A stretch of DNA of 64,000 bases from Mobula hypostoma (Eukaryota). A model generated the notes under the pieces. It did no database searches. It was not told the origin of the DNA and saw nothing but the letters and a program-made list of their open reading frames with translations. A program made the position numbers and the translations under genes. Of this stretch, positions 306 to 63,731 are shown piece after piece. The stretch spans positions 92,196,001-92,260,000 of the forward strand of contig NC_086108.1 of NCBI RefSeq assembly GCF_963921235.1, given 5' to 3'. The number at the start of each line of letters is the position of its first letter. The first letter of the stretch is position 1.

Positions 306-864
306 TTATCACTAGCTTGTTCTTAACCATGAGCACGGAGTGATCCTACTACCCAGGACTTTCAGCAGGAAAGAGCTCTCAGAGTGGGAAATTCCAAGAC
401 AGACAATAGCTCAGGGTGTGCCTTCCGTGGACATCATTCCCTACTGGGTGATCTGGAGTAACAGAGACAGTCAGTTCATGGCTACATACTCATTGTAGGG
501 AGTGGAAGTTGTGACAGGGCAAGGGTTAACAATGTCCAGACCAGGAAGGTTCTTTAAGAAAGCTCTTTGAAGAGCATAGCTTCCCTTTGCTCAGCTGGGG
601 GCAAGAGCCATTTGGCTTATTAAGCCAAGATAAGCACGTTATCAAAGATTATTGTTATCACACACCCCAACTCAGAGACAGTTGAGAAAGTTCAACACAT
701 CATCAGTTATTAGCTTGTAGTTTCTATTTATGTTTAAAACCTGCACAGAAAATGGTGATTGATCTTGCAAATAAGGATTTTGTGCTTACACAAGTTAGCT
801 AATTGGTCAATATCCATAACTGCTAGTCAATTCTGTATGGACGTGGCATTTCTTTGTTCAGAAG

Positions 865-1955
865 CAAGAGAAAATCTGCAGTTGCTGGAAATCCAAAAAC
901 ACACACAAAGTGCTGGAGGAACTCAGCAGGGCAGGCAGCATCTATGGAAAAGAGTGTAGTCAACGTTTTGGGCCGAGATCCTTCATCGGGACTGGAAAAA
1001 AAAGATGAGGAGTCAAAATTAGAGGATGGGGGGGTGGGGAAGAGGAGGAAGAAACACTAAAAAGGGGGGGGGAGTGGTGAAGTAAAGAGCTGGGAAGTTG
1101 ATTGGTGAAAGAGATACAGGTCTGGAGAAGGGGTATCTGACAGCAGAGGACAGAAGGCCATTGAAGAAAGAAAAGGGGGAAGGAACATTAGAGGGAGGCA
1201 ATGGGCAGGCAAGGAGATAAGGTGATAGAGGGGAAAGGGGGATGGGGATGGGGAATGGTGAAGTGGGGGTAGGGCATTACCAGAAGTTTGAGAAATTGAT
1301 GTTTATACCATCAGGTTAGAGGCTACCCAGATGGAATACAAGGTGCTGCTCCTCAAATCTGAGTGTGGCCTCATCATGACAGTAGAGGAGGCCATGGATA
1401 GACATATCGGAATGGGAAGTGGAATTAAAATGGGTGGCCACTGGGAGATCCCCCTTTTTCTGTGAGAAGAGCGTAAGTACTCAGCAAAGCAGTCTCCAAA
1501 TCTATGTCAGGTCTCACCAATATACAGGAGGCCACACCAGGAGCACCGGATACAGAAGATAATCCCAACAGACTCACAGGTGAAGTGTTGCCTCACCTGG
1601 AAGGACTGTTTAGGGCCCTGAATGGTAGTGAGGGAGGAGGCATCGGGGCAGGTGTAGCAGTTGTTCCTCTTACAAGGATAAGTGCCAGGAGGAAGATCAG
1701 TGAGGAGGGACAAATGGACAAGGGAATCCCCTGAGGAAAGCAGAAAGTTGGGGTCAGGGAAAGATGTGCTTGGCGGTGGGATCCCGTTGGCGATGGCAAA
1801 AGTTACGCAGAATTATATGCTGGACGCACAGGCTACTGAGGTGGTAGGTAAGGGCAAGAGAAGCCCTATTCCCGGTGGGGTGACAGGAAGATAGGGTGTC
1901 GGCAGACATGTGTGAAATGGAAGCGATGCAGCTGAGGGCAGCATTGATAGTGGTT
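865..1955 (-). mobile_element. Penelope-like retroelement, 5'-truncated (GIY-YIG endonuclease region plus terminal repeat)
   Basis: ORF 1507-1713 reads PGTYPCKRNNCYTCP...HFTCESVGIIFCIRCSWCGLLYIGET (Cys motif plus GIY-YIG). It is followed by a pyrimidine-rich 3' region and the terminal repeat with a decayed hammerhead at about 958-993. Confidence 0.9.
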
Positions 1956-3356: not shown

Positions 3357-4035
3357 CACAACACACACAAAATGCTGGAGGAACTCAGCAGGTCAGGCAG
3401 TGTCTACGGAAAAGAGCAATCAGTTGATATTTCAGGTCGAGACCCTCCTTCAGGACTGACAGGGAAGCGGGGGGGGGGGAAGATGCCTGAATTAAACGGT
3501 GGGAGGAGGGGAAAGAAACTGTCTGGAAGTGATAGGTGAAGCCAGGCGGGTTGGAGAGGTCAAGGGCTGGAGAAGAAAGTATCTGAGAGGAGAGGAGAGT
3601 GAACAATCGGAGAAATGGGAGGAGGAGAGGACCCGGGGGAAGTCGCAGGCAGGTGAGAAGCAAATGGTCAGGGTGGGGAATAAAGGAAGCTGGGGGGGGG
3701 TGGAAGTAGATTGACGAAGCAAAAGACTGAAGCGGAAGGGATCTGAGAGGCGAGTACCATGGAAGAAAGGAAAGGGGAGGAGCATCAGAGGGATGTGATG
3801 GGCAGCTGAGCAGAAGGGAAGAGGTTGAGGGTAACCAAAATAGCAAATAGAAAAAGTGAGAAGGAGGAAGGTGGGAGAATTAATGGAAATTGGAAAGCTT
3901 GATCAGGTTGGAGTTTACCCAGATGGAAATTGAGGTGTTGCTCCTCCAGCCTAAGTTTGACCTCATCATGGCAGTAGAGGTGGCCATTGGCCAACACGTT
4001 GGAATGGAAATGGGAAGTCAAATTGAAATGAATAG
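3357..4035 (-). mobile_element. Penelope-like element, 3' fragment
   Basis: ORF 3785-4039 (HLYCHDEVKLRLEEQHLNFHLGKLQPD) matches the GIY-YIG C-terminus; the same terminal repeat lies at 3357-3458. Confidence 0.85.
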
Positions 4036-4489
4036 ACATCAGGGATGCCTATTATTCTGACCTTAGCAGTGATGCCTATATCCTGAGAATTATAATAAAG
4101 TTCTCAATGTTCAGACTCCAACAACACCTCCTCGCAACTTCCCTCCAACATGCTCTCCATGCCAACACCAATCAGCTCATATCATCTTAGGGCTTCTGGT
4201 CCCAGAATTGACAGCAAGTCATAGGGAGGATTTAGCAGCAACTCAGATCTGGTCAGATTTCTGCTTGGAAGTCATACCAACAGTAATCCTTCCCCCAGAA
4301 CATCCCTGAAGGCTCCTATCAATATTGTAAATTTTTTTAATACACAGACGTTTAAATTCTTAACGTTGCTTTAAATGATTAAAAGATCAATAATATATTC
4401 TTATAAGAAAAAGGATTAAAGCTCCTTAAAGACTAAACTAAAATTGTAATTATAATGAAAAGTAAAGCTGATAGGATAGATTGAAAGAG

Positions 4490-4880: not shown

Positions 4881-5209
4881 CAAAAATAGAGCACAAGTAA
4901 TTGAGCTCACCCTCTCCGAGCATTGAAATCAGGCATTCCAGTTCACCTTAAAGAGGATTCCATTCCTACAGCCACAGCTACTCCTGAATCCCAGCAAAAC
5001 CACATGGAAAATGCAAGTCAGCTCATCCCAGGCTTACCGCAGGGCTGCTTTGATCCAGGAGCCACAAATAATTTGCTGAGGAAGTCAGCAGGTTAATCAG
5101 TGTCTGTGAGAGGAAAGGAAGTGTCGATGTTACAGATCGAAACCCTGCATCAAGACTGATCCTGGCATTGGCAGTTTCTTGTGTCTGCTTTGGTCCAGGC
5201 TGCACTTAC

Positions 5210-5319: not shown

Positions 5320-5450
5320 AACACAAGAGTTTGTGCAGATGCTAGAAATCCAGAGTAACACACACAAAATGCTGAAGGAACTCAGCAGGTCAGACAGCAT
5401 CTAAGGAGAGGAATCAGCAGTCGACATTTCAAGATCCTTCATCGAATCTC
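5320..5450 (-). repeat. Solo Penelope terminal repeat (a second decayed copy lies at about 5070-5160)
   Basis: acacacaaaatgctgaaggaactcagcaggtcagacagcatct motif shared with 865-995. Confidence 0.75.
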
Positions 5451-8174: not shown

Positions 8175-8640
8175 AAACAAGAAAAAAAGCTGCAGATGCT
8201 GGAAATTCGAGCAACACACACAAAATACTGGAGGAACTCCACAGGCCAAGCAAAGTCTATGGAAAGAAGTACGGTCGACGTTTCAGGCCGAGACCCTTCG
8301 GCCGGTCTAGAGAAAAATATATGGGGGAGGGGGAGAGAGAAACACAGGGTGATAGGTGAAACCGGGAGGGAGAAAGGTGAAGTAAAGAGCTGGGAAGTTG
8401 ATTGGTGAAAGAGATACAAGACTAAAGAAGGGGGGAGTCTTACAGAAGAGGATAGAAGGCCATGGAAGAAAGAAGAGGAGGGAGGAGCACCAGAGAGGAG
8501 TGATGGGCAGGGAAGGAGATAAGGTGAAAGAAGGAATAGAGGATGGGGTATGATGAAGTGGGGGATGGGGGGGGGGGGATTACCAGAAGTTCAAGAAATC
8601 GATGTTCATACCATTACAGTAATTTGGAGGCTACCGAAAC
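8175..8640 (-). mobile_element. Penelope-like element, 3' fragment
   Basis: Collinear with 865-1330; includes the terminal repeat with an intact GAAACGTC half of the hammerhead core. Confidence 0.85.
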
Positions 8641-8795
8641 GGAATGTAACATTGACTGTTTGTTTTTTTTTGAGGCCAAGTTGCTAGTTCGATGCTCAAC
8701 ACAGCACAGATGGAAAGCATGTAATAAGCCAGCTGAGAGCACTTGCCTCAGAGCCCATGTATTTCCACATAAGTAATTCCAGCAACTAAAATATA

Positions 8796-12127: not shown

Positions 12128-12369
12128 AGAATCTTTGGAGAGATTATAACATAGTTATTAATTGGTTCTAATTAGTTCCAGTAAATAGTCTCTGGCCTGA
12201 AGTATTATCACAATTCTCTCCCCACGGATGCTGCCTTGCGTGCTGAATATTTCCAACATTTTCAGTTTCATTTCCAGCATCTGTAATATTTTTCTCTTGG
12301 ATTCTGAATATAGTTGATTGGTTATAAATGCAAGACACTAGAGCACAGAGAAATAGAGAAAAAAAGCTT

Positions 12370-17289: not shown

Positions 17290-18798
17290 ATGTCCTCCCT
17301 GTACTCCTCTCCATATGTCCTCCCTGTATGTCCTCTTCGTATGTCCTCCCCGTACTCCCACTGGGTTTTTTCCTGGTCCTCTGGTTTCCTCCCGCAGTCC
17401 GAAGATGTAGCGGGGAGGTTAACTGCTCATTGTAAATTGTCCCTTGATTAGGTTTGGGTTAAATCGGTGTTGTCAGGGCTCGCTAGGGTGGCATGGCTCG
17501 AAGGGCTGGTTGTCAAGCCAAGACAAGGTCATTGTCATTTAACTATATACATGTATATAGAAACGGAACAATGTTTCTCCAAACCAGGGTGTAAAGCACA
17601 GTGATACACATAACACACGTTACACATGATAACTTATGAAGATAAGGATAAAATTAACAGATGAATCATGCATAAATAACAAACTAAAGTGCATAAATTA
17701 AATGCTGTGAGGTATGGAACAGATTAACCAGTGATGCTTCGAACGCAGTGCAGCAGGGAGTTCAGAAGCCTTATGGCCAGAGGGAAGACTCCATTTCTCC
17801 ACTACTCTGCACTGTATCGCTAAGTAAATAAATGAGATTGAGAGGGACAGTGGATCAGACACAACGGAATGGTGGCACAGATTCAAAGGGCCGAATGGCC
17901 TAATTATGCTCCTATGTTTTATGGTTTTATGACCTTACATATTACAATGTTGGGCTCACCAAACGATAGGAGAAGATAACACAATTTTTGGCTCATCTAC
18001 TTTCTTATCACTTATATGACAAGAGTCAAAAGCAATCCCCAGATACCAATGCAAATCACTAACCACTCACCCACAGCAACAAATTCAAGTAAATGACCTG
18101 CCTGTCCCTATGTTTTTTTTAGCAAATTTATCTCAGAACTTGAACAAGCATAATTAAAAACAATTTACTAGACTTCATGGCTTGACACCTGGCTCATTTG
18201 ATATCCCTCACCTGCAACTAAAAATATCTTCTGCAACATTATAGGCAGTAATTTGCCATTTTGTTAATGTCTTTCCACATCCTTTTAATGATAATAAAGC
18301 AGCTTCTCAAACTGAGTTATGTCACAGTCAGACCTCGGCTAAATGAAGCAGAAAATAAACTGCTGGTGGAACTCAGTGGGCCAAACGGCAGCTGTTGAGG
18401 GAAAGGGATGGTCGATGTTTCAGGTCAGAACCCTGCGTCGTCCTGAAACAGTTTGTTTGTTGCTCCAGGTTACAGCACCTGAGGTCTCTTATGCCTCAGC
18501 TAAATTAATGTATTTGTTTCTTGTCAACACAAGTAACCCATGGTCACAAATATGAAGGAAACAATTAGTGAAGAACCCCTAAATATAGACCTGCTTAGCA
18601 TAAATCTCAGTCTAATATTGCATCTACCTCCTGCGCCTGAAAGACATTTTTGAAAGAACACCAACCTCCGAGACAGAGTGTGGAGCGTGTTAATTCATCT
18701 CTTCTTCCTAACTGTATTCTCCATGCTTCAGATCACTGTCAAATTGAAATGTTGATGTTATATGTAGATTGATCTCTTCTATGATTTATCTTTTTAAG

Positions 18799-20689: not shown

Positions 20690-21118
20690 GAAGTTCCAGT
20701 AATTTGTCTTCTCTCCCCCTTCCCTCTTGTATTCCCTTTTATGGCTCCCCTCTGCCCCATCTCTTCTCCTCCCCTGCTTAGTGCCTCCCTCTAGTGCCCC
20801 TCCTCCTCCCGTTTCTCCTATGGTCCTGTCTCTTATCCTATCAGATTCCTTCTTTTTCAGCTCCTTACCTTTTCCAGCTATCACCTCCCAACCTCTTCTT
20901 TCATCACCCTTCCCCTACCCACCTGCCTCTGTACTCATCTTGCTTCACCTATCATCTTCTAGCTTCTACTCCTTTCCCTCCCCCTACCTTCTTCCCCCTT
21001 CCTTCCAGTCCCGATGAAAGGTCTTGGCCCAAAACATTGACTATACCTTTCTATGGACGCTGCCTCTCCTGCTGAGTGCCTCCAGCATTTTGTTGTTTCC
21101 AGCATCTGCAGAATCTCT
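20690..21118 (+). mobile_element. Penelope-like element, 3' fragment
   Basis: Pyrimidine-rich 3' region then agtcccgatgaaaggtcttggcccaaaacattgact terminal repeat. Confidence 0.8.
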
Positions 21119-21361
21119 AGTGCTAATGAAATAGAAAGCCTTCAATGGATCACAGTGGGGTGTCTGAGGTCTATATGTACTTCTATTCCCAACCTGTGTA
21201 CTTTAAACAGTAAGTTTGAAAATAGGCCACTATTTTTTTCGTTAATAAGGAAGCTAATTTCATCTGAAATATAATTAGAATCATTACACCTTATAATGCC
21301 AGTAAAATGAATTTAAAAAGATTGATATTTATGCTAATGGGAAGTACATAATATTATATCG

Positions 21362-40549: not shown

Positions 40550-41085
40550 CTCCTACTTTCTGAGGAGGCTGAAGAGACCTAGACTTTGCACACCTATTCT
40601 CACGTCATTCTACCAATAGGCGGTAGAGAGCATCCTAACAAGCTGCTTCACTGCATTGGTATGGAAACTGCACTGCGGCAAACAGGAAAACTCTACAACA
40701 GGAGGTTGAGGCAGGTTCGATGTTGTCGTTTAAAGTTAAATTGGATCAATATATGGACAGGAAGGGAATGGAGGGTTATGGACCGAGTGCAGGTCGGTGG
40801 GACTAGGTGAGAGTAAGAGTTCGGCATGGACTAGAAGGGCCGAGATGGCCTGTTTCCATGCTGTAATTGTTATATGGTTATATGGTTATAAAATTGTCCC
40901 ATTCATCACCAGCACCAACCTACCCACCATCAAGGACATATATACAGAAGGGTGCTGGAAAAGGACCAGTAACATCATGAAGGATCCCATCCACCCTCCT
41001 GGTGGACCGTTTGCCTTACTCTCATCAGGAAGGAGGCTAAACTTCATCTGCGCCAGGACCACCAGACTCAAAAACAGTTACTTAA
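40550..41085 (+). mobile_element. Rex1 3' fragment interrupted by a CR1 tail (about 40702-40889)
   Basis: tactttctgaggaggctgaagag...LLSSGRRLNFICARTTRLKNSY, with a (tatatggt)n CR1 tail in between. Confidence 0.75.
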
Positions 41086-41367
41086 AGTGAGTTTTTTTAT
41101 TTGAAAAGAATGTAATTCCCAGCATTCAGAAATACAATTGCTCCACAACATCGAGGATGGTTCGAAATTCACTTCAATTTATAACAATCCCAAAGATGCA
41201 ATTGTATTTTCCTTAAGTAATAACACGGAAATTGAAGGAAAATGCACTTTTCCAACTTACTAAGTAAAAGGGTGAAATGTATATAATACAGTATTCTGTT
41301 GTATTTAGTTTCAAGGAAGAGCATATTTAGGAACAGTTGCATCACACAGAGAGAATTTTATACAGAG

Positions 41368-41825
41368 TGGGGGCAGCAAGGTAGCATATCAGTTAGCTTA
41401 ATGAATTACAGCACCAGTTATATGATCGGACTTCAAATCTCACCACTATCTGTAAGGAGTTTGTACGTTCTCCCCATGACCACGCGGATTTCCTCCAGGT
41501 GCTTCGATTTCCTCCGACGTCCTAAGAGATATGCAGGTTAGTAAGTTGTGGCAATGCAACGGTGACATGTTCAGGTTGATTCCAAGCACATCAAAGGTTA
41601 TGGTGAGAAGGTGGGGGAAGTGGGACTAAATGGGAGAATGGATCAGCTCATGATAAAATGGCGGAGCGGACTCGATGGGCCGAATGGCCGACTTCTGCTC
41701 CTTTGTCTTATGATCTTATGGTCTTATGGTCACATTTCGGACTGTGTTGGTGTTTGACACAAATGAGGCACTTCACTGCATGCTTCGATGTTTCAATCTA
41801 CACGTGACAAACAAAACTAATCCTT
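41368..41825 (+). mobile_element. SINE interrupted by a CR1 tail (about 41592-41730)
   Basis: HE1-like core; cacat duplicated at both ends of the CR1 insert. Confidence 0.7.
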
Positions 41826-42977
41826 CTATTCTTGTTTGGATTTCAGCACTTCAGAACAACTCTTAACAAACTGAGAATGTTAATTAGGTTATGGATTTAT
41901 TGATATAAATTAGCTGGGTCATTTGCTTCCTTAAGTCTGTCATTTTTTGCTCTAACCTCAAAGAGAATAGTCACCGGGATTTGAAAACTGGATTGAGCAA
42001 AAGATTAGATAAATTAAGATTAATATACACAAAATGCAGGTGGAATTCAGTAGGCCAGGCAGCATCTATGGAAAGGAATAAACAGTCGACGTTTTGGCCC
42101 ATGGCAGCAACAAGTGGCCTGTTAAAATATGGATCTAGTAAGGGTAGGTGGACGTAGGATGAGTAACTCATGATGGGCTGAATAGCCTCCTTCTGTATCA
42201 TATATTTGATTACCGCCTTATGTTTCTTATCACTTACATTGCTTCAAATATTCACAGGGGGCTATTAAACAAGGTACCATGCTGGAGATGATCGTCACAG
42301 AGTCATGGAGCTACTCATTTTGGATAGGTACGTAGTTGGGAACAGTATGGAGGGTATGGTCCAGGTGCAGATAGATGAGACTAGATGGAAGATCAAGTCA
42401 GCATGGACTAAAGTGGGTTGAAGGTCCTGTTTTTGTGCTGTTGAGCTCAATGACTCCAAGACTCTATATTCCTCCTAAATAGTCATGGCCATGATCTCTC
42501 TTTTGGAAAATAAGACTGGCGAAAAGACATTCTCCTCTACCATCCACCATTTCAGGACCTCCAGCATCCCTTTACCCTTTTTGTTAGTTCCTACAAACAG
42601 ATCACTGCTAATAAACTAGATGTGCTGTGTGCAACTTGGCATATCCATATAACCATATATTTTGTCAGGAATGACTGGAAGATTTTCCATGTTTCCAATT
42701 TTTTTTTGCAAGAATTCCACATTGTCTTCTGATGAAAACTACCTCGATGTATAGAGCAACTCTTCTTCTCCTATGATCTACGTAAAGCAGTTGAGACTTA
42801 GTTCTCTAATCCAGGGGTAGCGAATGAGGTAGAATAGACAATATGACCATAAGATATAGGAGCAGCATTAAGCCATTTGACCCATCAGGTCAAATGGCTT
42901 TCTCATCTTGGCTGACCCATTTCCCTCTCAGCCCCAGTCTCCTGCATTCTCCCTGTAACCCTTCATGCCCTGACTAA

Positions 42978-43662
42978 TAGACTATGAGAACACTCAGTCC
43001 TCTTTTATTGTCATTTAGAAATGCATACATGCATTAAGAAATGATACAATGTTTCTCCGGAGTGATATCACAGAAAACAGGACAAACCAAAGACTAACAC
43101 TGACAGAACCACATAATTATAGTATATAGTTACAGCAGTGCAAAGCAATACCATAATTTGATGAAGAATAGACTATGGGCACGGTAAAAAAAAGTCTCAA
43201 GGTCCCAAGTCGATCGACTCCCGAGTCCCCGATAGCAGGCGGCAAAAGGGAGAAACTCCCTGCCATAAACCTCCAGGCACCGTTGACTTGCCGATGCCTT
43301 GGAAGCAGCCGACCACAGCCGACATTGAGTCCATCCGTCCGAAAACTTCGAGCTTCCGACCAGCCCCTCCAATACAGCCTCCCGAGCACCATCCTCTGCT
43401 GAGCACCTTCGACCTCGCCCCGGCCGCTGAAACAAGCAAAGCCGAGGATTTCGGGGCCTTCTGCTCCAGAGATTCCGGTTACAACACAGTAGCAGCTGCA
43501 GCGAAGCAGGCATTTCAGAAGTTTTCCAGATATTCCTCTGTAGTCTCACGTCCGTCTCCATCAAATCAGAATTGTGCACAGTCCCCTACTTGACAGATAA
43601 CAGATATCATTCATTCACCGGAGAGGCCGCGCGCGCTGCCTTCGTGCCGCCATCTTCTCCTC
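42978..43662 (-). mobile_element. About 650-bp non-autonomous retroelement family, copy 2 (nested in a CR1 3' end)
   Basis: Collinear with copies 1 and 3; 5' end GAGGAGAAGATGGCGGC on the minus strand. Confidence 0.85.
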
Positions 43663-43964
43663 TGTCAACCTCTACCTCAAATATACCCAAAGACTTCACC
43701 TCCGCAGCTGCCTGTGGCAATGAATTCCAGATTCGCCATTCTCTGGCTAAAGAATCTCATCATGCTCTGCCTTGCTTCAGAAGACAGATGAACAAGGAAA
43801 GCAAGAATGGACAAGTGGGAAGAGAAGGATGATGTAGATTGACCAAGAATTGCAGGATGGAGTTATTGTGATGACAGATAGAGCAGTAAAGCCAAGCTTC
43901 CAGTGGCAGTTGGTATTCACTTGCAAGCGATTTATATTCTTCAATCCTTTGCAGGTGCACTCAC

Positions 43965-44062
43965 CAGACACATTTTAGAGCAAGTCCAGGCGCAGTGTAC
44001 CCAGGCACAATAACAGATCAGTGGCCATTCTTCACTAGCTTGTAGCCAGGATTAAGTGCCAT
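43965..44062 (-). other. Candidate 98-nt non-coding or 5'UTR exon
   Basis: Strong acceptor ttgcttctgttttcctctccag| and donor CTG|gtgagt; stops in all three frames. Confidence 0.5.
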
Positions 44063-44203
44063 CTGGAGAGGAAAACAGAAGCAATTTTAACCTTGTTTTT
44101 AGATCTCTAACAGTTATCATGTTCACCTCATCATTCCTGGTAACCCACACAGTTTGCTAACTGTAAGATATACTGTATGTGCAATGGAAAATGACTTCAG
44201 TTA

Positions 44204-46534
44204 GAGTGGTGGTAGAAAGTTTGTAAACCCTTCAGAATTTTCTCTATTTCTGCATAAATAGGACATAAAATGTGATCAGATCTTCACATAAGTCTTAAAA
44301 CTAGATAAAGAGGACCCAATCAAATAAATTTGTCACATTTGTCACATAGTATGAGCAGAATTATCTGCAGCTTAATGTGAAAAAGACTAAGGAGCTGGTG
44401 GTGGACCTGAGGAGGGCTAAGGTACTGGCGACCCCTGTTTCCATTCAGGGGGTCAGTGTGGACATGGTGGAGGATTATAAATACCTGGGGATACAAATTG
44501 ACAATAAACTGGACTGGTCAAAGAACACTGAGGCTGTCTACAAGAAGGGTCAGAGCCGTCTCTATTTCCTGAGGAGACTGAGGTCCTTTAACATCTGTCG
44601 GACGATGCTGAGGATGTTCTACGAGTCTGTGGTGGCCAGTGCTATCATGTTTGCTGTTGTGTGCTGGGGCAGCAGGCTGAGGGTGGCAGACACCAACAGA
44701 ATCAACAAACTCATTCGTAAGGCCAGTGATGTTGTGGGGATGGAACTGGACTCTCTGACGGTGGTGTCTGAAAAGAGGATGCCGTCTAAGTTGCATGCCA
44801 TCTTGGTCAATGTCTCCCATCCACTACATAATGTACTGGTTGGGCACAGGAGTACATTCAGCCAGAGATTCATTCCACCGAGATGCAACACTGAGCGTCA
44901 TAGGAAGTCATTCCTGCCTGTGGCCATCAAACTTTACAACTCCTCCCTTGGAGGGTCAGACACCCTGAGCCAATAGGCTGGTCCTGGACTTAATTCCATC
45001 TGGCATAATTAACATATTATTATTTAATTATTTATGGTTTTCTGTTGCTATATTTATACTCTATTCTTGGTTCATGCAACTGTAACGAAACCCAATTTCC
45101 CTCGGGATCAATAAAGTATGTCTATCTATCTATCTAAATAACACTAAAACATTATACTTGTTCATTTGTTTATTGAGAAAAATTATCCAATATTACATGT
45201 ATTTGTTGGAAAAGTGTGTGTGAACCTTTGCTCTCACAACTGGTATGACCCCCTTGTACAGCAATAACTTCAACCAAACATTTCCAGTAACTGTTGATCA
45301 GTCCTGCACATCGGCTTGGAGGAATTTTAGACCATTCCTCCACACAAAACTGTTTCAGTTCATCAATATTTCTGGGATACCTTGCACTCTGACTTGGCCC
45401 TTTCAAAACAGGAGCTTTCTTCTTTTAAACGATTCTGTTGGTGATTTACTCTTGTCTTTCAGATCATTGTCTTGTTGCACCATCCAAATTCGAATGAGCT
45501 TCAGGTGATGGACCATTACCCTGACATTCTCCTGTAAAATGCCTTGATATTATTTTGAATTCATTGTTCCCACAACGATTGCAAGTTGTCCAGGCCCTGA
45601 GGCAGAAAACAGCACCAAACCACAATGCTTCTTCCACCATGCTTCACAGTTGATAAGAGGTTATAGTGTTGGTGTGCAGTGCCATTTTTCCAACAAACAT
45701 AGCAGTGTAACTTTTGTCTCATCTGTCCACAGAATATTGTCCCAGAAGCATTGTGGAATATCCAGGTGGTCTTTGCAAACTTGAAATGTACAGCAATGTT
45801 TGTTTTGGAGAGCAGTGGTTTCCTCCATGGTGTCTTTCCATGAATACCATTCTTGTTCAGTGTTTTACTAATAGTGGACACATGAATTAGCAAGTTCTGG
45901 GAATTTCTGCAGGCCTTTTGCGGTTACTCTTGGGTTCTTTATCACCTCCTTCAGCACTGCACATTGTGCTCTTGATGTGATGTTTGCAGGAAGCCCACTC
46001 CGAGGGGGTGTAGCAACAGTACTGAATTTCCTCCGTTTGTAGACAATTTCTCTTCACTGTGGACTGAGGAACACTCAGCTCTTTAGGAATGCTTTTGTAG
46101 CCTTTTCATGCATCTCTACAATTCTTCTTCTGAAGGTTGTTTTGATTGAGGCATGGTACACAAAGAGATCTTTCTTGAGAAGTGCAGGCTCTATCAGTAA
46201 CCTGACCATCTGTGCTTTTTTATATAGGGCAGGCCACCTCTACAACCCACACCTCCAATCTCATTGATTCATTGATTGGAACACCTGACTCCAAATAGCT
46301 TTTGCAGAAGGCAATGCCCCAGAGGTTCACAGACTTGTTTAAACCTAGACTGATTGTTTAAGTGGAGTACTCAGTAATGACAAGAAGAAGTACAATTGCT
46401 TGTGTGCTGTTAGCTTAGGCAGTTTGGGTTTGTCTATTGTTGTGACTTAGATGAAGATCAGACCACATTTTATGAGTAATTAATGCAGAAAACCAGGTAA
46501 CTGCAAAGGGCTCACGAACTTTTTCTTGCAACTG
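44204..46534 (-). mobile_element. Decayed Tc1-like transposon carrying a Rex1 insertion in its terminal repeat
   Basis: TA-flanked imperfect TIRs; transposase remnants RKPLLSK, VKHGGRSIVVW and PRNIDELKQFCVEEWSKIP. Confidence 0.88.
44330..45135 (+). mobile_element. Young Rex1/Babar LINE 3' fragment
   Basis: Uninterrupted 199-aa ORF 44377-44976 (KTKELVVDLRR, SRLYFLRRLRSFNIC, RKSFLPVAIKLYN) and a (CTAT)n tail. Confidence 0.92.
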
Positions 46535-46689
46535 TATATCATGATATAAATGCAGGTATTAGAAATAATAAAAAAAAAGAGAAAGAAAATTAGAAATAAG
46601 CACATCAAGCAGTCACCATCCAGAAAAATACATTAACGTTTCCTGAATATTCAATGGTGCAGGAAGACTTGCACGACAAGTTACATCTG

Positions 46690-47245
46690 AAACCTGGGAG
46701 ATTTTGTTGCAACTTTATAAACCCTGGTTAGGCCTCATCTGGAGCAGTGTGTACAGATTTGGTTGCCCTACTATAGGAAGGATGTTGAGGCTTCAGAGAG
46801 GATGCAGAAGAGGTTTACCAGGAGGTTTACCAGGTTTGCCTGGTTTGGGGAGTATGTGCTGGATAAATTTGGATTGTTTTCTCTAGAGCATCGGAGGTTG
46901 AGAGGGGACCTGATAGAGGATTAGGAGGTTATGAGAGGCATAAATAGAGTGGGCAGAGAGTATCTGTGAGAGGGAGTAGGTTCAAGGACGATGTTAGGGG
47001 CAAGTTTTTTTTCTCAGAGAGTGGTGGAGGCCTGGAATGCACTGTCTGGTATGGTGGCAGAGGCAAATACATTAGAGGCTGTTAAGAGACATTTAGATAG
47101 GCAGAGGAATGCAAGGAAGATGAATGGATATGGACATGGAGTAGTTAGGTAGGAGGGATTTCGGTGTTTTTGATTTGCTTTTTAGCTGGTTCAGCACAAC
47201 ACTATGGGCTGAATGGCCTGTTCCTGTGCTGTACTCTTCTATCTT
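46690..47245 (+). mobile_element. CR1 LINE 3' fragment
   Basis: ttataaaccctggttaggcctcatctggag...ggggacctgatagag...gggctgaatggcctgttcctgtgctgtac. Confidence 0.85.
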
Positions 47246-48065
47246 CATTCTAATTTTTCCCCAAAGTTCTCTTCAGCAGGGTTATATCTGTCTTACATCA
47301 CCTGTAGAAAAAAAGAGTCTCAGTGAGGCACTGCATTGGTGTATTAATGATTAGAAATGGATTAATAGAAATGAACTTCCTTGGTGGTGAAGAAGAGAAA
47401 ATACCAAAAGCCATTTTGGAGCATTGAAATATTTCTAAAATTAGATTATATCAGTGTGGCACAAAGAACAACTCGCAAACTGGTGGATATACTCAGCAGG
47501 TTAGTAAGCATCCGTGCAGAGGGAAAGAGATTCCTAGAAATAGATGCCATCAAAGGAGGGTAAACAAAGGGGCTAAATAATCCCATCATGCGGTTGAAAA
47601 GCAGTTGGAATAGAATTTCTGGCGGGTAACTAATTGATGAGACTGATTTAGCAAATTGAAGCCTGAAGACACTCTCAACAATTCAAGCATAGCTTCTTCT
47701 CCTCTGCCATCCGATTTCTGAATGGACATTGAACCCATGGACACTAACTCACTACTTTTTAATTTCTATTTTTGCATTACTTATTTAATATATATATATA
47801 CTTACTGTAATTCACGTTTTTTATTATTATTATGTATTGCATTGTACTGCTACCGCAAAGACAACACATTTCATAATATATACCAGTGATATTAAACCTG
47901 ATTCTGACAAGCTGGTCAATAATAATAAACTTTCCTGAACTATTAAAACTTAATCCAACAAATTACAAATTGTGTAATTTTTATACAGTAAAAATAACTG
48001 AGATGCTTAAAATACTTAAATCAATTTAAGTGATCAAAAATATCTCAAGAAGTTAATAGTAACTT

Positions 48066-48345
48066 ACAAAATGATGGAGGTTCTCAGCAGGCTGGTAGGC
48101 ATCCATAGAAATGAACAGAGTCAAAGTTTCAGGCCAAAACCATTTATCAGGACGGTGTTTTTTTAAAATTAACACCTTTATTACTCACAAATGTTCCTCT
48201 CCAATAGACATCAATCTGGCAGATGGAGTCCGATATGGGAAAGCTAGTCCTGACAAAGAGTCTCGGCCCGAAATGTCGACTGTACTTCTTCCAATAGATG
48301 CTGCCTGGCCTGCTGTGTTTCACCAGCATTTTGTGTGTGTTGCTT
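48066..48345. repeat. Inverted pair of Penelope terminal repeats
   Basis: Minus copy 48066-48153 and plus copy 48246-48345 are separated by about 90 bp. Confidence 0.75.
48246..48281 (+). ncRNA. Minimal type-I hammerhead ribozyme motif with one core substitution
   Basis: agtc-CTGACAA-agagtctcggccc-GAAATGTC-gact against the CUGANGA...GAAA...UH core; stem I agtc/gact pairs. Confidence 0.65.
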
Positions 48346-48554
48346 GTATTACCTTTTAAGCTTGAGAGAGGCTACAGAATATTGCAGTACAAATGGATCT
48401 GGGAGCTGTGGTACTTGAGAAGCAAAAAGTTAGCACGCAGATATAACAAATAATTAGTAAACCAATGGGGCGTTTACCCCATCTCATGTGGCTGTGTTGC
48501 TCCACAAAAGGAAGGCCATTTTTATATGTCTAACCATAGATCTAACCCATAGCC

Positions 48555-49088
48555 TCCCCCACTGTCATAATGAGGCCACACTTAGGTTGGAAAACAACAC
48601 CTTACATTCTGATATTCCGTCTGGGTAGCCTCCAACCTGATGGTATGAACATCGATTTCTTGAACTTCCAGTAATGCCCACCCCTTCTCTTTCACCATTC
48701 CCCATCCCCTTTTCCCTCCCTCACCTTATCTCCTTGCTTGCCCATCGTCTCCTTCTGGTGCTCCTCCCCTTTACTTTTTTCCAGAGCCTTCTGTCCTCAT
48801 CTATCAGACTCCCCCTTCTCCAGCCCTGTATCTCTTTCACCAATCAACTTCCCAGCTCTTAACTTCCTCCCTCCCCCTCCAGGTTTCACCTATCACCTTG
48901 TGTTTCTCTCTCCCCTCCCACACCTTTGAAATCTAGTCCTCAGTTTGTTTTCTCCAGTCCTGCTGAAGGATCTTGGCCCGAAATGTTGACTGTACTCTTT
49001 TCCCGTAGACATGCCTGGGCTGCTGAGTTCCTCCAGCATTTTGTGTGTGTTGCTTGGAATTTCAGCATCTGCAGATTTTCTTTTGTTT
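48555..49088 (+). mobile_element. Penelope-like element 3' fragment with hammerhead motif at 48956-48991
   Basis: Translates CHNEATLRLE...IFRLGSLQPDGMNIDFLNFQ*; followed by agtc-CTGCTGA-...-GAAATGTT-gact. Confidence 0.88.
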
Positions 49089-50609
49089 AGGGCATTTTGT
49101 TTTATTGCACCTGCAGTAATACGAACAGTTTTAGTCTCAATATTTAAAGGAGAACATATTTTACGGGAGGTATTATAGAGAAAGTTCACAAGGTGAATTC
49201 CTGGGATGAAAATACTGACATGTGAAGATAGATTGATCAGGTCTGGACTTATTAAAGTATTGAAATGTGACAGCAATCTTATGAATCATGGAGTCATAGA
49301 ATCTTACAGCACAAAAAGAACACCTTGACCCAGCAAGTCCATGCTGACATTTCTGCCCATCGACACTATCCTTCTGTGCAATATTTATTGAAGTATCCGT
49401 CTGAGTGCCTCTTCAACATAGTGATTCCATCTGATTCCATCACATTTTCTGGTAGCTCATTCAATCATTTCCTGTGTTTTAAAAGAATTGCCCCTCAGTT
49501 CCACTTTAAAACTCCTTCCTTTCACTTTAAATATATTTCTCCTTGCCTTTGATATAAGATTCAGAGAGGGATTGACAAGGTCAAAGCTGAGGGGTTGTTT
49601 ACCTAGAAATGAGGACAAATTTCATGGTTGAAAGGTTCTTTGAACTGAAGAGTGAAGCCTTTGAATAGATTCAAAGGAGAGATTGACAGAACTTGAACTA
49701 CAAGGGAGTCACTGGTCTTGCAAGAGAAAAAGAAAGTGGTGTTAGCACCAAGAATGAACCAGTAAAGATCTTGGTGAATGGAAGAACATCCTTTTCTTAC
49801 TCCTGCTCAGTTTGTTCTTGAAAAAATAAACGCCACCTGCATCAGCTCTAACCAAACACAGGCTCTTTGACTGAATGTCCCAGTGTGAGTCCTGGCAATT
49901 GCCTCAACTTTGTGCTCCTCGAGGAATCCAGGGTCAAAGCACAGGGAGCAACATGTTGGTAAACAGCTGCCAGCAAGATCAGGACATTTGTATTCGCATC
50001 TGGTCACACAGTAATCCTGCCTGTGCCACTGAAGCAGGGAAATGTAGGGGATGCTGTGAGGAATTGCTGACATTTCCTGCAAAATCTCACCTTTGTTTCT
50101 CTCTCCACACACACAGTCGCCTTTCCTCCGGGATAATCGGAGAATTATTCGTTTAGTTTTTATTTCATATGCTTAACTATTTTCCAAAGTAAAAGGCCAG
50201 AATATCCATATGCTCCCCACACAACAGTTGCAAAGGGCAACTATTAAGTTTATTGTCAATGGGTTTTTAATTATTTTCATCAAAAAGTTAAATCAGAAGT
50301 ACAAGGCTTTGACATTTTGTTTCATATTTTCTAGCAATTCCATTTTTTCTGAGCAATCATTGACACAATTGACACACTACATACGTTAAGATTTAGCTGT
50401 CTATATTTTGAAGACCATAGCAGAAATAGCTAATTTCTTTGATGTAATTATCACACATTATTCATATCTCTTACAAAGGGGGGGAATTAGCATAGTTCTA
50501 TTTTATATACATACCACAGCTATTTAAAGTTATTTACACAGCTCTTTCTCTTCCATTAACAAGGGCATAGCAATATAAAAACACCCAAAGCATTTCAGAC
50601 ATAAGAGCA

Positions 50610-53600
50610 TAAAACTGTAAGGCATGGAGCAGAATTAGGCCATTCAGCCTATCGAGCCTGGTCCGCTATTCCATCACGGCTGATCCTGAATCCCACTCAA
50701 CCCCATACACCTGCCATATCGCCATATCCTTTAGTGCCCTGACCGATCAGGAAACTGTCAACTTACACCTTAAATATACCCATGGACTTGGCTTTTACCA
50801 TAGTCCGTGGGAGAGAATTCCACAGATTCACCATTCTCTGGCGACAAAAAAATCCTCCTTACCTCTGTTCTAAAAGGTCACCCCTCAATTCTGAGGCTGT
50901 GCCCTCAAGTTCCAGATAACCCCACTACAGAAAACATCCTCTCCACATCCGCACTATCTAGTCAATTCAATATTTGGTGGCTTTCAATGAGATCCCCCCC
51001 CCCATATTCTTCTAAATTCCAGTGAGTACAGACCCAAAACTGCCAAACATTCCTAATATGTTAATGCCTTCATTCCTAGAATCATTCTTGTGAATTTCCT
51101 CTGGACTCTCTCAAATGACAACACATCCTTTCTGAGATATGGGACCCAAAACTGTTGACAATATTCCAGTGCAGCCTGACTAGTGTCTTATAAAGCCTCA
51201 GCATTATCTCCCTGCTTTTATATTCTATTCCCCTTGAAGTAAATGTCAACATTGCCTTTGCCTTCTTTACCACAGACTCAACCTGTAAATTAACCTTCTG
51301 GGAGTCTTGCACAAGGACTCCTAAGTCCCTTGACACCTCTGATGTTTGAATTTTCTCCCCATCCGCAAACTTTGCCACAAAGCCATCAATTCCATTATCT
51401 AAGTCACTGACAAACAATGTGAAAATTAGTGGTCCCAATACTGACCCCTGAAGAACACCACTAGCCGCTGGCAGCCAACCAGAAAAGGCCCCTTTGATTC
51501 CCACTCACTGTCCCCTGCTTGTCAGCCATTCCTCTGTCCATGCCAGCATCTTTCCTGTAACACCATTTCATCTTTTCACTTCTTATAGCTTTTCAGTTGC
51601 CTTTTGTTAGATTTTAAAAGCTTCCCAATCATCCAACTTCCCACTCATGTTAGCTACCTTATATGCCCTTTCCATAAAACCATAAGACAAAGGAGCAGAA
51701 GTCAGCCATTCGGCCCATCGAGTCTGTTCCTCCATTTAATCATGAGCTGATCCATTCTCCCATTTAGTCCCACTCCCCCGCCTTTTCACCATAACCTTTG
51801 ATGCCCTGGCTACTTTCCTTGACTTTTATGCAGTCCTTAACTTCCCTTGTCAGCAACAATTGCCAACACCTGCCATTTGAGAACTTCTTCTGTGGGACAT
51901 ATTTATCCTATGAATTATTCCCAGAACCTTCAGCCATCTCTGCTCTGCCATCATCCCCACCAGTATCCTCCTCCAATCTACCTGTGCAAGTTCCTTTCTC
52001 ATGCCTCTGCAATTCCCTTTATTCCATTGCGATACTGATACATGTTACTTATGCTTCTCCCTCTCAAATTGCATATGAATTCAATTACATTATGATCACT
52101 GCCTCTTAAGGGTTCCTTTACATTAAGCTTGCTAATAAGATCTGGGATATAATCTAATATAATCTAAGATAGCCTTTCCCCAAGTAGGCTCAAGCACAAG
52201 CTTCTCTAAAAAGCCATCTCATAGGCATTCAACAAATTCCCTCTCTTGTGATTTGACACCAAACTGATTTTCCCAATCCTTTTGCATACTGAAGTTTCTC
52301 ATTAAAATTGTGACATTACCCTCATTACATGCCTTTTCCACCTCCACTTGCAATCTCAACCCCACATCCTTTTTACCCTTGCAGTTTCTTAACTCCAGCC
52401 ACAAAGATTCAGCATTCTCTGACCCTATGTCACCTCTTTCTAAAGATGTAATTCTATCTCTTACCAACAGAGCCACACCACCGCCTATGCCTTCCTCCCT
52501 GTCCTTTTGATACAAAGTATATCCTTCAATGTTACGCTCCCAACTATGGCCTTGTTTCAGCCACGACTCAGTGATGCTCACAGCGTGATACCGACCAATC
52601 TCTAATTGTGCCACAAGTTGGTCCACTTTATTCCAAATGCTATGCACATTTAAATCCTGCGTTTTTACCCTTTTGAATTTTGCCTCTGTGGTACAAACTC
52701 TTTGTTCTGTCTGCAGTTGTACCCAATCATTGGCTTGTCCTTCCTTACATTCATATTACGTATTACATTATCTACTTGTAAAGCAGCTGGTTCATCCTCA
52801 GCTCTAGTAAATCTGCCCACCAGAATATTGGTCCCCCTCGGATTCAAGTGCAACCCGTCCCTTTTGTACAAGGCCCAACTGCCCCAGAAGAGGTCCTAAT
52901 GATCCAGATACCTGAATCCCTGCCCCACTGCTCCAATTCTTCAGCCATACATTTATCTACCACCTCATTCTATTCCTATCCGCACTGGCACAGGCGCAAT
53001 CCCAAGATTACTACTCTTGAGGTCCTGCTTCTTAGCTTCCTTCCTAACTCCCTGTACTGTGTTTTCAGGACATCCTCCCTTTTTCCTACCTATATCATTG
53101 GTAGCAATATGTACCACCACTTCTGGCTGCTCACCCTCCCTTTTCAGGATATTGTGGATGCGTTCAGAAACATCACTGACCCTGGCACGTGGGAGGTAAA
53201 CTATCATCCATGCTTCCTTTTCATGTCCACAGGATCGCCTATCTGTAACCCTGACTATAGAGTCCCCTATTACTGCTGCCCTTCTCTTCAATTCCCTGCC
53301 CTTCTGAGCCACAGGCCAAACTCAGTGCGAGAGGACTTACTACCGAGGGGGACAGCCACAGGGGTGCTCCCCACTATCTGATGTTCTCCCTTCCCTCTCC
53401 AGACAGTCACCTATTTATCTTTCTCCTGTAGCTTTGGTGTGATTGCCTCCCTGTGGCTCCCGTCTATCACTGCTTCACTTTCCCTAACAAGCCAAAAGTC
53501 ATCGAACTGCACCTCCAGTTCCCTAACATGGTCTCTATTGAGCTGCATCTCGATGCAACTGGTGCAGATATAGCCAATGAAGAGGCTGGAGGTTTCCTGG

Positions 53601-53740
53601 AAATCCCGCATCTGACACATAGAACAGAACACTGGCTCTGTAGACATATCCCCTATTCTCTCAAGAGTTAAATAAGAAAAAAGGAGTGAGAAATAAGGAA
53701 TGAATTTTCCTACTTACCTTGTCTCAGCCTGTTCTTACCG
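50610..53740 (-). mobile_element. CR1 LINE spanning ORF1 to the 3' tail, internally deleted and decayed
   Basis: In order: ORF1 Cys/zipper (FCSMCQM...CTSC), SGNH esterase (VIGDSIVR, HIATND, DGLHLN), APE (NKVDQL...ITESWL), RT (SGVLQGSVLGP, AKFAD), 3' tail. A second CR1 tail is nested at about 51674-51812. Confidence 0.92.
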
Positions 53741-54371
53741 AAGCCCTGTTGAGCCAAAGCCTTACTACTCTGACTCAGACTACTCCGACAATGACCACTC
53801 TGCTAGGTGGTACTTCTCTTTTATAGAGACTGGGTTTGTAAAGCTTTCCACCTGACCAGTGCGGGAACATTCCTGTTCCATCTGCGCAGCACTCCAATCA
53901 TAATGAGTAACTGTTAGCGTTAGTAAATGTTAGTGTATGGTGAATGTATCAATCAACTTGCATGTTACAAGATCCCAAAAAAAAGGTAACATGATTATTA
54001 ACTAGTAAACTGCTTAGATAGTGCTGGATTAGGGATGTACAAGGGCTTGTCCATTCTAAGTTTTAAATAGTGCTGTTGGATATGAGATACTAATATAAAC
54101 AAGTTCTTGGTTCAATGTCTTATCCAAAATGCACTACCCTTGTGTCACAGCCTAGTTCATATCATCAAAACCTGAGGGGAGTTTAATCATCAATCTTTCT
54201 GAATAAAAGCAAAAAAGGTATGAGATATTGTTCCCTGCCTTTCAACAAGCAAAGAGTTAAGCTCGATTACAACTATGTGTGAGGCTTTCTGTCATCAATT
54301 CAAACAACTGGCCAAAATCAAAATAAAATGCTGGAAACAGGACCTTAATGCAAAGGGTAAGCTTCTACCAA

Positions 54372-54573
54372 ATACAAAATGCTGGAGGAATTCAGCAAGT
54401 CGGGCAACATCTGTAGGGAGGAATAAAGAGTTGATGTTTTGGCTGAGACTGTTCATGGGAACTCGTAATCCTTCGTAGATATTCCTCCCCATAGATGCTA
54501 CCCATCGTGCTGAACTCCTCAGCATTTTGTGTGTTACACTGGATTTCTAGTGTCTGCAGAACCTCTTGTGTTT
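54372..54573. repeat. Inverted pair of Penelope terminal repeats
   Basis: 54375-54424 is an imperfect reverse complement of 54481-54529. Confidence 0.8.
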
Positions 54574-55039
54574 GTGAAACTAATACCAAAAATATTAATC
54601 TCCTTCAAACTCTGATATTCTGAAACAGATATTGCAGATGAATGTCAGGACTTCTTGACTATTTTAAGCCACAACAAAATATTAAGTTGCTTAAAGTTCA
54701 GTTTTCATGCAGGACATAAAATGATGGAAAATCTTTGTAACAATTAACCACACCTTTTCCTTGTTCATATACTGTACATCTGATTTCTTTATTTTTGAAC
54801 AGGTTAGACAACTGATTTATTGTCACCTTTTAGCTCACTACTAGAACTGCTTGGCATTTTAAAACTTTAGCTCCTAAACTAATTGAAAATATATGGTAGC
54901 AATTTTAAGGCAGTGAATTAGATTTTTATATGGGTGCTGTGGATTCGTCACTAACAGAGTAATAGAGAAAAAAAATGTCATGAAAATTAAAAGTTACAGG
55001 GCAAAGACTACCCATGATAGGGAAAGTATATAAAATAAT

Positions 55040-55400
55040 ATTCAAAGTTCAAAGTAAATTTATTATCAAAGTACTTATATGTCACCCTGAGATTCATTTT
55101 CTTACAGGCATTCACAATGCAATAAAGAATACAATAGTATCAATGAAAAACTGCACACAAAGACTAACAAACAGCCAATGTACAAAAGAAGACTTCCTGT
55201 ACAAATAAAATATTATAATAACGTAAATACTGTACATAAACAACTAATACTGAGAACATGAGTTATGGAGTCCTTTAAAGCAGGTCTATAGGTTTTGGAG
55301 TCAGTTCACTGCGGAGGTGATGAAGTTATCCACGCAGGTTCAGGAGCCTGATGGATGAAAGTTGACAACTGTTCCTGAACCTGGTGGTGCAGGACCTAAG
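55040..55400 (-). mobile_element. Rex1/Babar 3' tail
   Basis: ttcaaagttcaaagtaaatttattatcaaagtac tail and aactgttcctgaacctggtggtg remnant. Confidence 0.7.
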
Positions 55401-56394
55401 GCTAAGCTATAAAAGATTTTTGGAAAACGCATTCTAAAACAGAAATATAATTAATAATAAAAGTAATCACACAATTAAATGCTTTGATTAATAAATTCAG
55501 TGCATCGATTTTATGCCAAACTGATTTACAGCTCATTAGTACTCAATACCAAAAGATAAAGGAATCAATTTATTAGAATTTCATCCAAAATAGTGTTCAG
55601 TAGCTCCTGCCAACTTGCAGCACTCAATCTTGCAGACAGCCTGGCTTGTGCTGTCTGAATTCAGCCAGTTGCTTAACTTTCAACATTTATCTAACATTCA
55701 CAGGAGTAAAGGAAATATCTCGACATTTTCACTCTCTTATTTAAACATTTTCATATTTAGGACTTCTCAAAATTCAATAATGATCTGACACTTGCCGGAC
55801 TTAAGGGAAAATCTCTACTCATTCACTCACAAAGTTTACTCTGTGTTTCCTAGAAATGGAATATCAAGTTGTGATTGCAAACAGATGAAGATAAATAGTC
55901 TTTGAAGTGTGAAATAGGGGACACTTGTTTACATTATAAGTTTTAAGTTTTTCCTTAAACCAATGCCTCTTTTATACAGCAGTTGGAATAGTTATTTCTA
56001 TAAGCTCTTTGAGTACCTGACATTTATGAGTGTCACTGCACTGCCCACATTTAATTGTACAATAGCATACCCAAGAGCTATGAGATTCCCTCCTGATCAA
56101 AACCAAATGTCACGTCCTCTGCACATCCCCCAATCCCAGCTTTGGAAAGGCAGACAAAGAAGATGCTTGGTAAGCCGAAGCCACATAAAAATGGAGAAAC
56201 TGGTTCATTTTATCCAGCAGAGAGTGAATACACAGAGCAACAGGAAGATAGGTCAGTTCCTATAGTCCCTTTCATTAGTTTGTTGGCTTCCACGACTTAA
56301 TGAGATAGATACAAATTTGTGCTCAGTTGCTTAAGTTATAATACAGTGGCAGCTATAAATTGTATTGCCCTTCTGAAATGCAATGAAGCCATGT

Positions 56395-56790
56395 ACATAA
56401 AACATGAGGGCAGAATTAGGCCATTCGGCTCAGCAATTTGCTTCACCATTCGATCATGGCTGATTTATTTTTTTTCCCCGTCAACCTCCTCTTCTGCTTT
56501 CTCCCTGTAATTTTTGACACCCTTACTAATCAAGAAGATATCAACCTCCACTTTAAACATACCAATTGACTTGGTCTCCACAACCATTTGTGGCAATGAA
56601 TTCTGCATTTTCAACATCCTTTGACTAAAGAAATTCCTCCTCACCCCTGTTCTAAAGAGATGTCCTTTTATTCTGAGATTGTGCCCTCTGATCCTAGACT
56701 CTCCCACTATTTGAAACATCCTCCCTATGTCCGCTCTGTCTAAGCCCTTCAATATTCAGTAGATTTCAATCAGATTCCCTCCTCACTTCT
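56395..56790 (-). mobile_element. CR1 LINE 3' end
   Basis: KGLDRADIGRMF...RGHNLRIKGHLFRTGVRRNFFSQR. Confidence 0.85.
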
Positions 56791-56827
56791 AATACACCCA
56801 TCTATGTTTTCATCCAGATTATTTTTT

Positions 56828-57454: not shown

Positions 57455-57494
57455 CCACCTATACATAATACATTTGTACATTAATCTGGACACA

Positions 57495-57680
57495 TGAAGG
57501 GTCTCGGCACAAAACATCAAAGTCTAGATCTCTCCACAGATGCTGCCTGGCCTGTTGTGCTCCTCACGCATTTTGAGTTCATTAGTCCAGATGGGAGCTG
57601 ACACAAAACGTCGACAGTCTATTTCTCTCCATAGATGCTGCCTGACATGTAGAGATCCTCCAGCATTTCGTGTGTGCTCA
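57495..57680 (+). repeat. Two tandem decayed Penelope terminal repeats
   Basis: tccacagatgctgcctggcctg and tccatagatgctgcctgacatg units. Confidence 0.7.
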
Positions 57681-57947
57681 CTAAAATTCTACAAAACTTT
57701 CCTTATCCCACATACTCCACAGAGAGTCCAACATGGCTGTAAATGCTCTACATATTTTGATGGGAGCTGCAGCTGATCACAATTCCCTTTGCCATCTCGG
57801 AGATTAGAAATGACTCAGATCTCCCATATCCTACAGGAGGAGGATTCTGCTGCTCTCGCTTCCCTATCTTTTCTACTATGAAAGGGAGGTAAAAAACTTC
57901 ACCTGATTACTAACTTGCCCTTTTTTCCAAACCCTGATGCTCAGCAA

Positions 57948-63645: not shown

Positions 63646-63731
63646 CGACCTCAGGTCAGACGTGGTGACCCGCTGAACTTAAGCATATTACTAAGCAGAG
63701 GAAAAGAAGCTAACGAGGATTCCTTCAGTAA
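63646..63731 (+). rRNA. 28S rRNA 5'-terminal fragment (pseudogenic), preceded by GC-rich ITS2-like sequence
   Basis: cgacctcaggtcagacgtggtgacccgctgaacttaagcatattactaagcagaggaaaagaagctaacgaggattccttcagtaa matches the conserved eukaryotic LSU start (ITS4/LR0R primer region); similarity stops abruptly. Confidence 0.9.

Follow-up and report, generated by a model that had tools for sequence, protein, structure and literature searches.

A minimal type-I hammerhead motif in the terminal repeats of an abundant, putatively Neptune-type Penelope-like element of Mobula hypostoma

Results

Hammerhead relics in the window

In this work we describe a stretch of 64,000 nucleotides of Mobula hypostoma DNA (contig NC_086108.1, positions 92,196,001 to 92,260,000), the whole of which is called the window. 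Its focal feature, the relic of a minimal type-I hammerhead motif, stands at the head of a solitary pseudo-LTR (pLTR) of a Penelope-like element (PLE), and further copies of the repeat are dispersed on both strands:

862..1954 (-): longest copy in the window, with ORF residues 777-1010 of the full protein (1954-1283), 3' UTR, relic 958-993 (U4C, G12A) and tail
3358..4039 (-): older copy, ORF end and relic 3422-3457 (A9G)
5054..5159 (-): further old pLTR relic
5321..5449 (-): pLTR relic, motif 5419-5449 internally deleted
8175..8645 (-): 5'-truncated copy with relic 8274-8308 (U4G, A6C)
12219..12293 (+): tail-only relic without hammerhead
18355..18437 (-): further old pLTR relic
20811..21122 (+): copy with relic 21007-21042 (U4C, G12A)
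42022..42100 (-): pLTR relic whose start lies within helix II
47466..47519 (-): weak tail-only relic (E 0.008)
48062..48153 (-): further pLTR relic (G8A), absent from the initial annotation
48246..48281 (+): focal minimal type-I hammerhead relic, with helix I, a core changed by G8A, the bulged A, a helix II in which one pair is mismatched, GAAA, a vestigial helix III and GUC
48246..48353 (+): solo pLTR head of about 108 nt, from the helix-I base to near the first 3' end zone
48547..49088 (+): 5'-truncated element, with the end of the GIY-YIG ORF (48548-48668), pyrimidine-rich 3' UTR, relic 48956-48991 (A6C) and tail
54368..54571 (strand not assigned): head-to-head inverted pair of pLTR relics, absent from the initial annotation
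57494..57691 (+): two adjoining pLTR relics, 57494-57578 and 57584-57691, both broken, the second absent from the initial annotation

A profile built from 13 natural copies was run over 664 kb, consisting of the window, the adjoining 100 kb and 500 kb from 50 other places. It gave 143 matches, 17 of them in the window, and none in the reversed control. The initial annotation had listed eight window copies, all with coordinates and strands that match the sequence, and had missed nine further relics. Two of the eight are incomplete: the copy at 5419-5449 (-) has lost an internal part of helix II, and that at 57495-57520 (+) is devoid of the 5' strand of helix I and of the CUG. Every copy had been described as changed in its core, and core lesions were indeed found in all window copies that span the motif (10/10). 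The core CUGANGA, GAAA and NUH in type-I order is present in the family and in 0/10 of these copies, and a sequence-independent hammerhead descriptor gave no match in the window.

The focal copy differs by G8A, a broken 10.2 pair and C15.2T, the first and last of which fit CpG decay. Its solo pLTR head (48246..48353) is 84% identical to a young copy and no longer has a convincing target-site duplication. The window copies as a group are 67-84% identical to a young copy and, as judged from their sequences, are likely old, mutated, and dead or inert. The closest pair on one strand, at 48246 and 48956, carries the lesions G8A and A6C. No head-to-tail repeats of the retrozyme type occur in the window; the copies are dispersed monomers without an intact pair, whereas the available text on animal non-LTR retrozymes describes arrays (bioRxiv 10.64898/2026.07.22.740005).

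Consensus and predicted fold of the motif

Column counts over 79 motif-spanning copies back the consensus given in the initial annotation. Its core, CUGAUGA, holds for these copies taken together (42 have T and 27 have C at position 7) but not for the young lineages, which read CUGACGA. Its 5-bp stem II would leave a loop of 2 nt; the fold consists instead of a bulged A, 4 bp and a CUCG tetraloop. The CpG sites of the motif show symmetric C-to-T and G-to-A decay in the same 79 copies, and both the extra nucleotide between A9 and 10.1 and a palindromic vestigial helix III are present in the family. Among 85 spanning copies in the 664 kb the whole core is intact in 28, and core plus all stems in 15; the descriptor gave 15 matches over this sequence and none in five shuffles. 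Rfam hammerhead models matched neither the window nor the intact copy L147:3700-4100.

Of 80 young copies, 68 have U in place of C11.1 and just 3 have A in place of G12; the G·U pair at 10.1-11.1 was therefore fixed in master lineages and is not a product of decay. Position 7 is C in 74 of the 80. Older copies, like 20/20 motifs from related elements, have G-C at 10.1-11.1, and G·U is fixed in two young lineages. These youngest two lineages (L143:6460-6500 (-) and L147:3889-3924) combine the fixed G·U with C at position 7, by which an inhibitory pairing of the core with the cleavage triplet becomes fully Watson-Crick. In the predicted minimum-energy fold of the monomer the 5' half of the core would be paired with this triplet. 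Folding z-scores for the motif (41-43 nt) are low in magnitude, at -0.7 to -1.5, and thus weak. For the young motif the energy model places the active dimer at -9.5 and the dimer minimum at -28.3 kcal/mol, a weak test because tertiary contacts are ignored.

Two other readings of CUGAUGA were considered and rejected. It is not a CpG-decay product of CCGAUGA, as U4 is T in 69 of 79 copies, nor does it act in the young lineage as an ORF start of the kind known from the Anolis element PAc, since CUGACGA is found there and the first in-frame ATG lies downstream.

Related motifs and covariation

In 80 related loci (279 kb, from metagenomes) the descriptor gave 20 matches in 16 loci, 18 of the 20 on the ORF strand, and none in 10 shuffles. 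All 20 motifs have the bulged A and G10.1-C11.1, neither of which the descriptor requires; both are described as hallmarks of minimal hammerheads in the available text of PMC4209133. These related (invertebrate) elements share the same cores, and their helices I and II are unrelated in sequence yet complementary. In an alignment of 15 motifs, three rows of which are misaligned with a longer helix III, 87.5% of cells are paired, covariation is 0.88 against 0.23 after shuffling, and 7/8 pairs vary on both sides, the test being partly circular as the set was selected by a descriptor that demands pairing. Retention of the core across distant relatives while the helices change points to selection on the ribozyme fold.

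Core, pLTR position and the covariation of relatives agree with a minimal type-I hammerhead in Penelope-like terminal repeats, as first suggested. One metagenome contig (L280) holds a complete pLTR-ORF-pLTR relative with one minimal hammerhead per repeat, 3,152 nt apart.

The carrier element

The element unit is composed of a pLTR, an ORF (RT, zinc-finger linker, GIY-YIG), a 3' UTR and a second pLTR, about 3.5 kb in all. Loci L147 and L385 each have two motifs 3,516 nt apart, one per pLTR, and in L143, L147 and L385 the hammerheads lie within the pLTRs on the sense strand of the RT-EN ORF. In the window the relics at 958, 3422 and 48956 sit just 3' of the ORF end, with protein identities of 58-95%. 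First in-frame ATGs occur 92 and 170 nt past the first base of the motif. The reading frame of L145 has YIDD at 657, the linker at 878-886, GVIY at 914 and YIGET at 928. The GIY-YIG Pfam match (E 2e-4) is just under the cutoff, and the RVT_1 match is likewise below its curated cutoff; a search of solved structures with the full ORF gave no match. The best protein match, at 70-71%, is from the bamboo shark Chiloscyllium punctatum.

The RT with a C-terminal GIY-YIG and a CX2-5CxxC linker suggests a Neptune-type PLE, a placement made by the linker motif, which Neptune and Nematis share (PMC8557442, available text). The same source describes for the Neptune clade of endonuclease-positive PLEs the C-terminal GIY-YIG, the linker and 5' truncation, together with partial tandems, an inverted 5' partner and a tail; pLTR tandems, the inverted 5' partner and a tail of 30-40 nt are all present in the family described here.

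Copy number in the genome

The exact intact-core pattern has 48,120 matches in the genome, and the 36-mer of the initial annotation, extended by one base at each end, has 76, with no control match for either. Rough extrapolation from the 664-kb profile count gives about 750,000 repeats in the 3.48-Gb genome, in line with the very large number of relics that had been anticipated. That the repeats "collectively" encode a ribozyme does not describe them well, as they are decayed copies of one master motif. About 48,000 copies look intact, and their cutting activity is putative. A 102-residue piece of the RT yielded 43,790 first-look candidates in the genome. Twelve long copies taken from among them share 94-98% identity across stretches longer than 2 kb (77 pairs), so that in other parts of the genome the family is young. 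The available text of PMC4209133 gives copy numbers of about 4,000 for coelacanth and 9,000 for Xenopus, compared with the 48,120 exact intact matches here.

Natural tandem arrays

Two intact motifs 293-441 nt apart were found in 4 of 29 distinct loci with an ORF start, the pairs being in L354, L359, L362/L363 and L365. In these loci and in L384 the tandem units of 262-441 nt consist of the pLTR and the first 135-215 nt past the ORF-start anchor, hinting that such ORF-start pieces mark a possible third 3' end zone. Locus L383 (G000:C2:157815500-157819000), fetched for its periodic matches, has head-to-tail ORF-deleted units of 310 nt with four intact hammerheads; neighbouring units meet at the helix-I base. 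Position 17 reads C in one unit and T in the next, which suggests a higher period of 620 nt. By its sequence organisation, short head-to-tail repeats with one hammerhead per unit as in non-LTR retrozymes, L383 is a retrozyme-like array and the best candidate for a natural dimer substrate.

End points of insertions

In the numbering used here helix I begins at 199, the CUGANGA core spans 203-209, the motif occupies 199-234 and the predicted cut falls between 230 and 231. End points were collected from 88 young copies, chosen by sequence downstream of the cut in the first 3 Mb of one contig, with both arms of inverted insertions counted. Their 3' ends gather in two zones, 30 at 294-299 and 27 at 330-335, about 95-100 and 131-136 nt past the first base of the motif. 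The 5' starts occur at about 0.45 per base overall; 11/88 fall at 197-200 against 1.8 expected (P about 3e-6), and 2/88 in the cut region (228-231), where 1.8 were likewise expected.

Over the whole genome, the base before position 199 is non-native in 2,926 of 57,418 matches (5.1%), that before 200 in 5,242 of 62,660 (8.4%), that before 201 in 2,911 of 65,571 (4.4%) and that before the cut site in 1,029 of 86,983 (1.2%); corrected for base composition, the rates come to roughly 10%, 8%, 4% and 1% for 199, 200, 201 and the cut, respectively. For position 199 all of the first 30 listed loci are true junctions (16 solos, 11 with target duplication). For 200 and 201, inspection of the first 10 loci each confirmed 7/10, where the script had called 8 and 9. 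The first 30 loci at the cut site comprise 17 plain substitutions, 12 short arms of two-armed insertions and 1 solo without duplication. The frequency of solos at position 199 is about 45 times that at the cut.

The two-armed short arms at the cut (12/30) exceed the expectation from an even spread. Five of the 12 junctions fit fold-back from helix I or annealing of cDNA ended at the cut, and four others have a common 3-nt microhomology. Because cut solos are so much rarer than those at 199, we prefer fold-back from helix I for the two-armed junctions, perhaps alongside some cutting. Copies are mostly 5'-truncated and often have flanking target-site duplications or are paired head to head; the focal copy is one of the solos that start at helix I.

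Discussion

Our main reading, to which we give a probability of roughly 0.8, identifies the motif as a minimal type-I hammerhead carried by the pLTR of a hugely amplified Neptune-type PLE, and the window copies as old, mutated, likely inert by-products of insertion. Motifs of this kind have been known since 2014 and the window finding itself is ordinary. Tens of thousands of young insertions in this genome record RT end points, which point to the helix-I base and away from the cut site.

Since insertions start preferentially at the helix-I base and rarely at the cut, uncut RNA is the likely template. By analogy with Anolis Poseidon, RT would begin copying such RNA at internal sites just 3' of the hammerhead. 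In about 1 of 5 events it may then release or fold back right after the 36-nt hairpin has been copied, the stop at this place being itself presumed, and this would give 100-135-nt solos such as the focal copy. The monomer is predicted to fold as an inactive rod, which would cut only weakly, as a dimer or with help of the element protein, and cutting would likely be dispensable for insertion.

We tentatively go further and propose, at odds well below even, that the hammerhead serves as an RT stop and fold-back signal and not as a knife. About a fifth of copying would then end at the helix-I base and yield the solo and head-to-head forms; the youngest lineages would have weakened their ribozyme, by G·U at 10.1-11.1 and a perfect inhibitory pairing of core and triplet, without loss of success, and the ORF-deleted tandem arrays with intact motifs would be nascent young retrozymes.

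At somewhat short of an even chance, a dimeric ribozyme, formed by the 5' and 3' pLTRs or within arrays, cuts the tandem transcript in vivo and the units circularise to serve as templates, a model of Cervera and De la Pena (PMC4209133, available text). RT would read across the sealed site and insertions would bear no trace of the cut, so that this can coexist with our main reading. Dimer cleavage of minimal hammerheads was reported by Lunse, Weinberg and Breaker, as summarised in the available text of PMC6765202. The core kept among distant relatives with changing helices speaks for such cutting, as do the intact head-to-tail arrays (four motifs at 310 nt in L383, pairs 293-441 nt apart), which make the model directly testable here. 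Against it stand the near absence of solo starts at the cut, an active dimer far above the dimer minimum in a model that ignores tertiary contacts, the U in place of C11.1 in the youngest lineages, and cleavage of only 1/9 Xenopus dimers (bioRxiv 10.64898/2026.07.22.740005, available text).

Rather unlikely, in our view, is that the hotspot at the helix-I base marks a transcription start set by an internal promoter, with solos being the complete first 100-135 nt of the RNA, which might spread in a SINE-like manner. The starts are sharp (197-201), several abut the target duplication without added bases, and the site fits the vertebrate initiator consensus. The Penelope element of D. virilis has an internal promoter in its pLTR (PMC2377424, available text). 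A main start site, however, should pile up long copies, and their count fits the general stop rate (P 0.16): at 30 loci where the pLTR runs into the ORF, 20 copies reach past 197 on the upstream side, a single copy has its start at 197, and no start falls at 199-201. The extra G expected from cap copying is not seen either, with no clear excess of G over A before 199 in 100 listed loci judged by eye. A sole promoter at 199 is thus disfavoured, as 1/21 motif-reaching ORF-joined copies starts there and 20 extend upstream.

A 3' splice site at the hotspot, with solos derived from spliced or mis-spliced RNA, is very improbable: a pyrimidine tract and a YAG do lie upstream of the motif, with the AG at the helix-I base, and the D. 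virilis Penelope intron ends at the 5' end of helix I (PMC4209133, available text), but solos have no common upstream exon, the estimated peak is at 199-200 and not 201, and 17 motifs of related loci show no conservation of an AG beside helix I. Contigs of runs presumed to be RNA, compared with L147:3400-4600 and window positions 41000-60900, gave no well-supported GT..AG joint among the matches listed, which we do not take as evidence.

The suggestion in the initial annotation that some copies are active inside host introns is, for the window, scarcely credible: nothing there favours it (genome-wide, some of the 48,120 intact matches would lie in introns by chance), 0/10 spanning copies have an intact core, the descriptor found none, and 46 of the 53 long window frames, seven that lie in PLE copies or overlap other frames being set aside, gave in Pfam transposon-type domains only and no host-gene domain, which would still allow for a large intron, but none of the window copies is expected to be cleavage-competent.

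Comparison with known systems

Minimal hammerheads are known in the fish elements Neptune, Poseidon and Xena, and the metazoan PLE motifs described in the available text of PMC4209133 share with ours the type-I topology, the CUGANGA and GAAA core, the extra base between 9 and 10.1, a short helix I, a palindromic vestigial helix III, presence in both pLTRs and mostly solitary truncated copies. Ours differ from them in a helix II of only 4 bp and in G·U at 10.1-11.1 in the youngest lineages. That text names no cartilaginous fish as hosts, although its supplements may list some, and in a literature search on Penelope, hammerhead ribozyme and shark the last word was found only as a name for the shape of the motif.

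A close parallel is Poseidon PAc of Anolis carolinensis (PMC11167929, available text), in which the hammerhead lies where pLTR and ORF meet, ends are absent from the cut site, and 3' ends fall in two internal zones separated by 30-40 nt (the tail), explained there by two internal RT start sites. Ribozyme mutants of PAc still insert in vitro, its cleavage requires protein, and no RNA-seq ends mapped to the cut. In PAc the ORF begins inside the ribozyme, whereas the first ATGs here are 92 and 170 nt past the first base of the motif; the zinc-finger linker of our element is absent from Poseidon.

The available text on the Neptune clade (PMC8557442) says nothing of a start hotspot at the helix-I base, nor was any mention of it found in the accessible literature on Penelope-like hammerheads, whose supplements might bear on it. 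Compared with animal non-LTR retrozymes (bioRxiv 10.64898/2026.07.22.740005, available text; see also PMC7229834), the motif-bearing arrays of 262-441 nt in this genome look retrozyme-like and PLE-derived.

Other features of the window

A fragment of the 28S rRNA 5' end (Rfam LSU, E 3e-9) at 63646-63730 (+) is likely a dispersed pseudogene piece. A near-perfect palindrome of 67 nt at 60914-60980, which matches mir-9256 weakly and under the gathering score, is probably formed by the inverted termini of a small DNA transposon. One repeat is present as two young copies (92-94%) in opposite orientations, at 16789-17275 and 61953-62440; the first overlaps a frame with an ALKBH8_N match and is probably a LINE end. 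A degenerate tandem array of about 42-nt units occupies 13731-13954.
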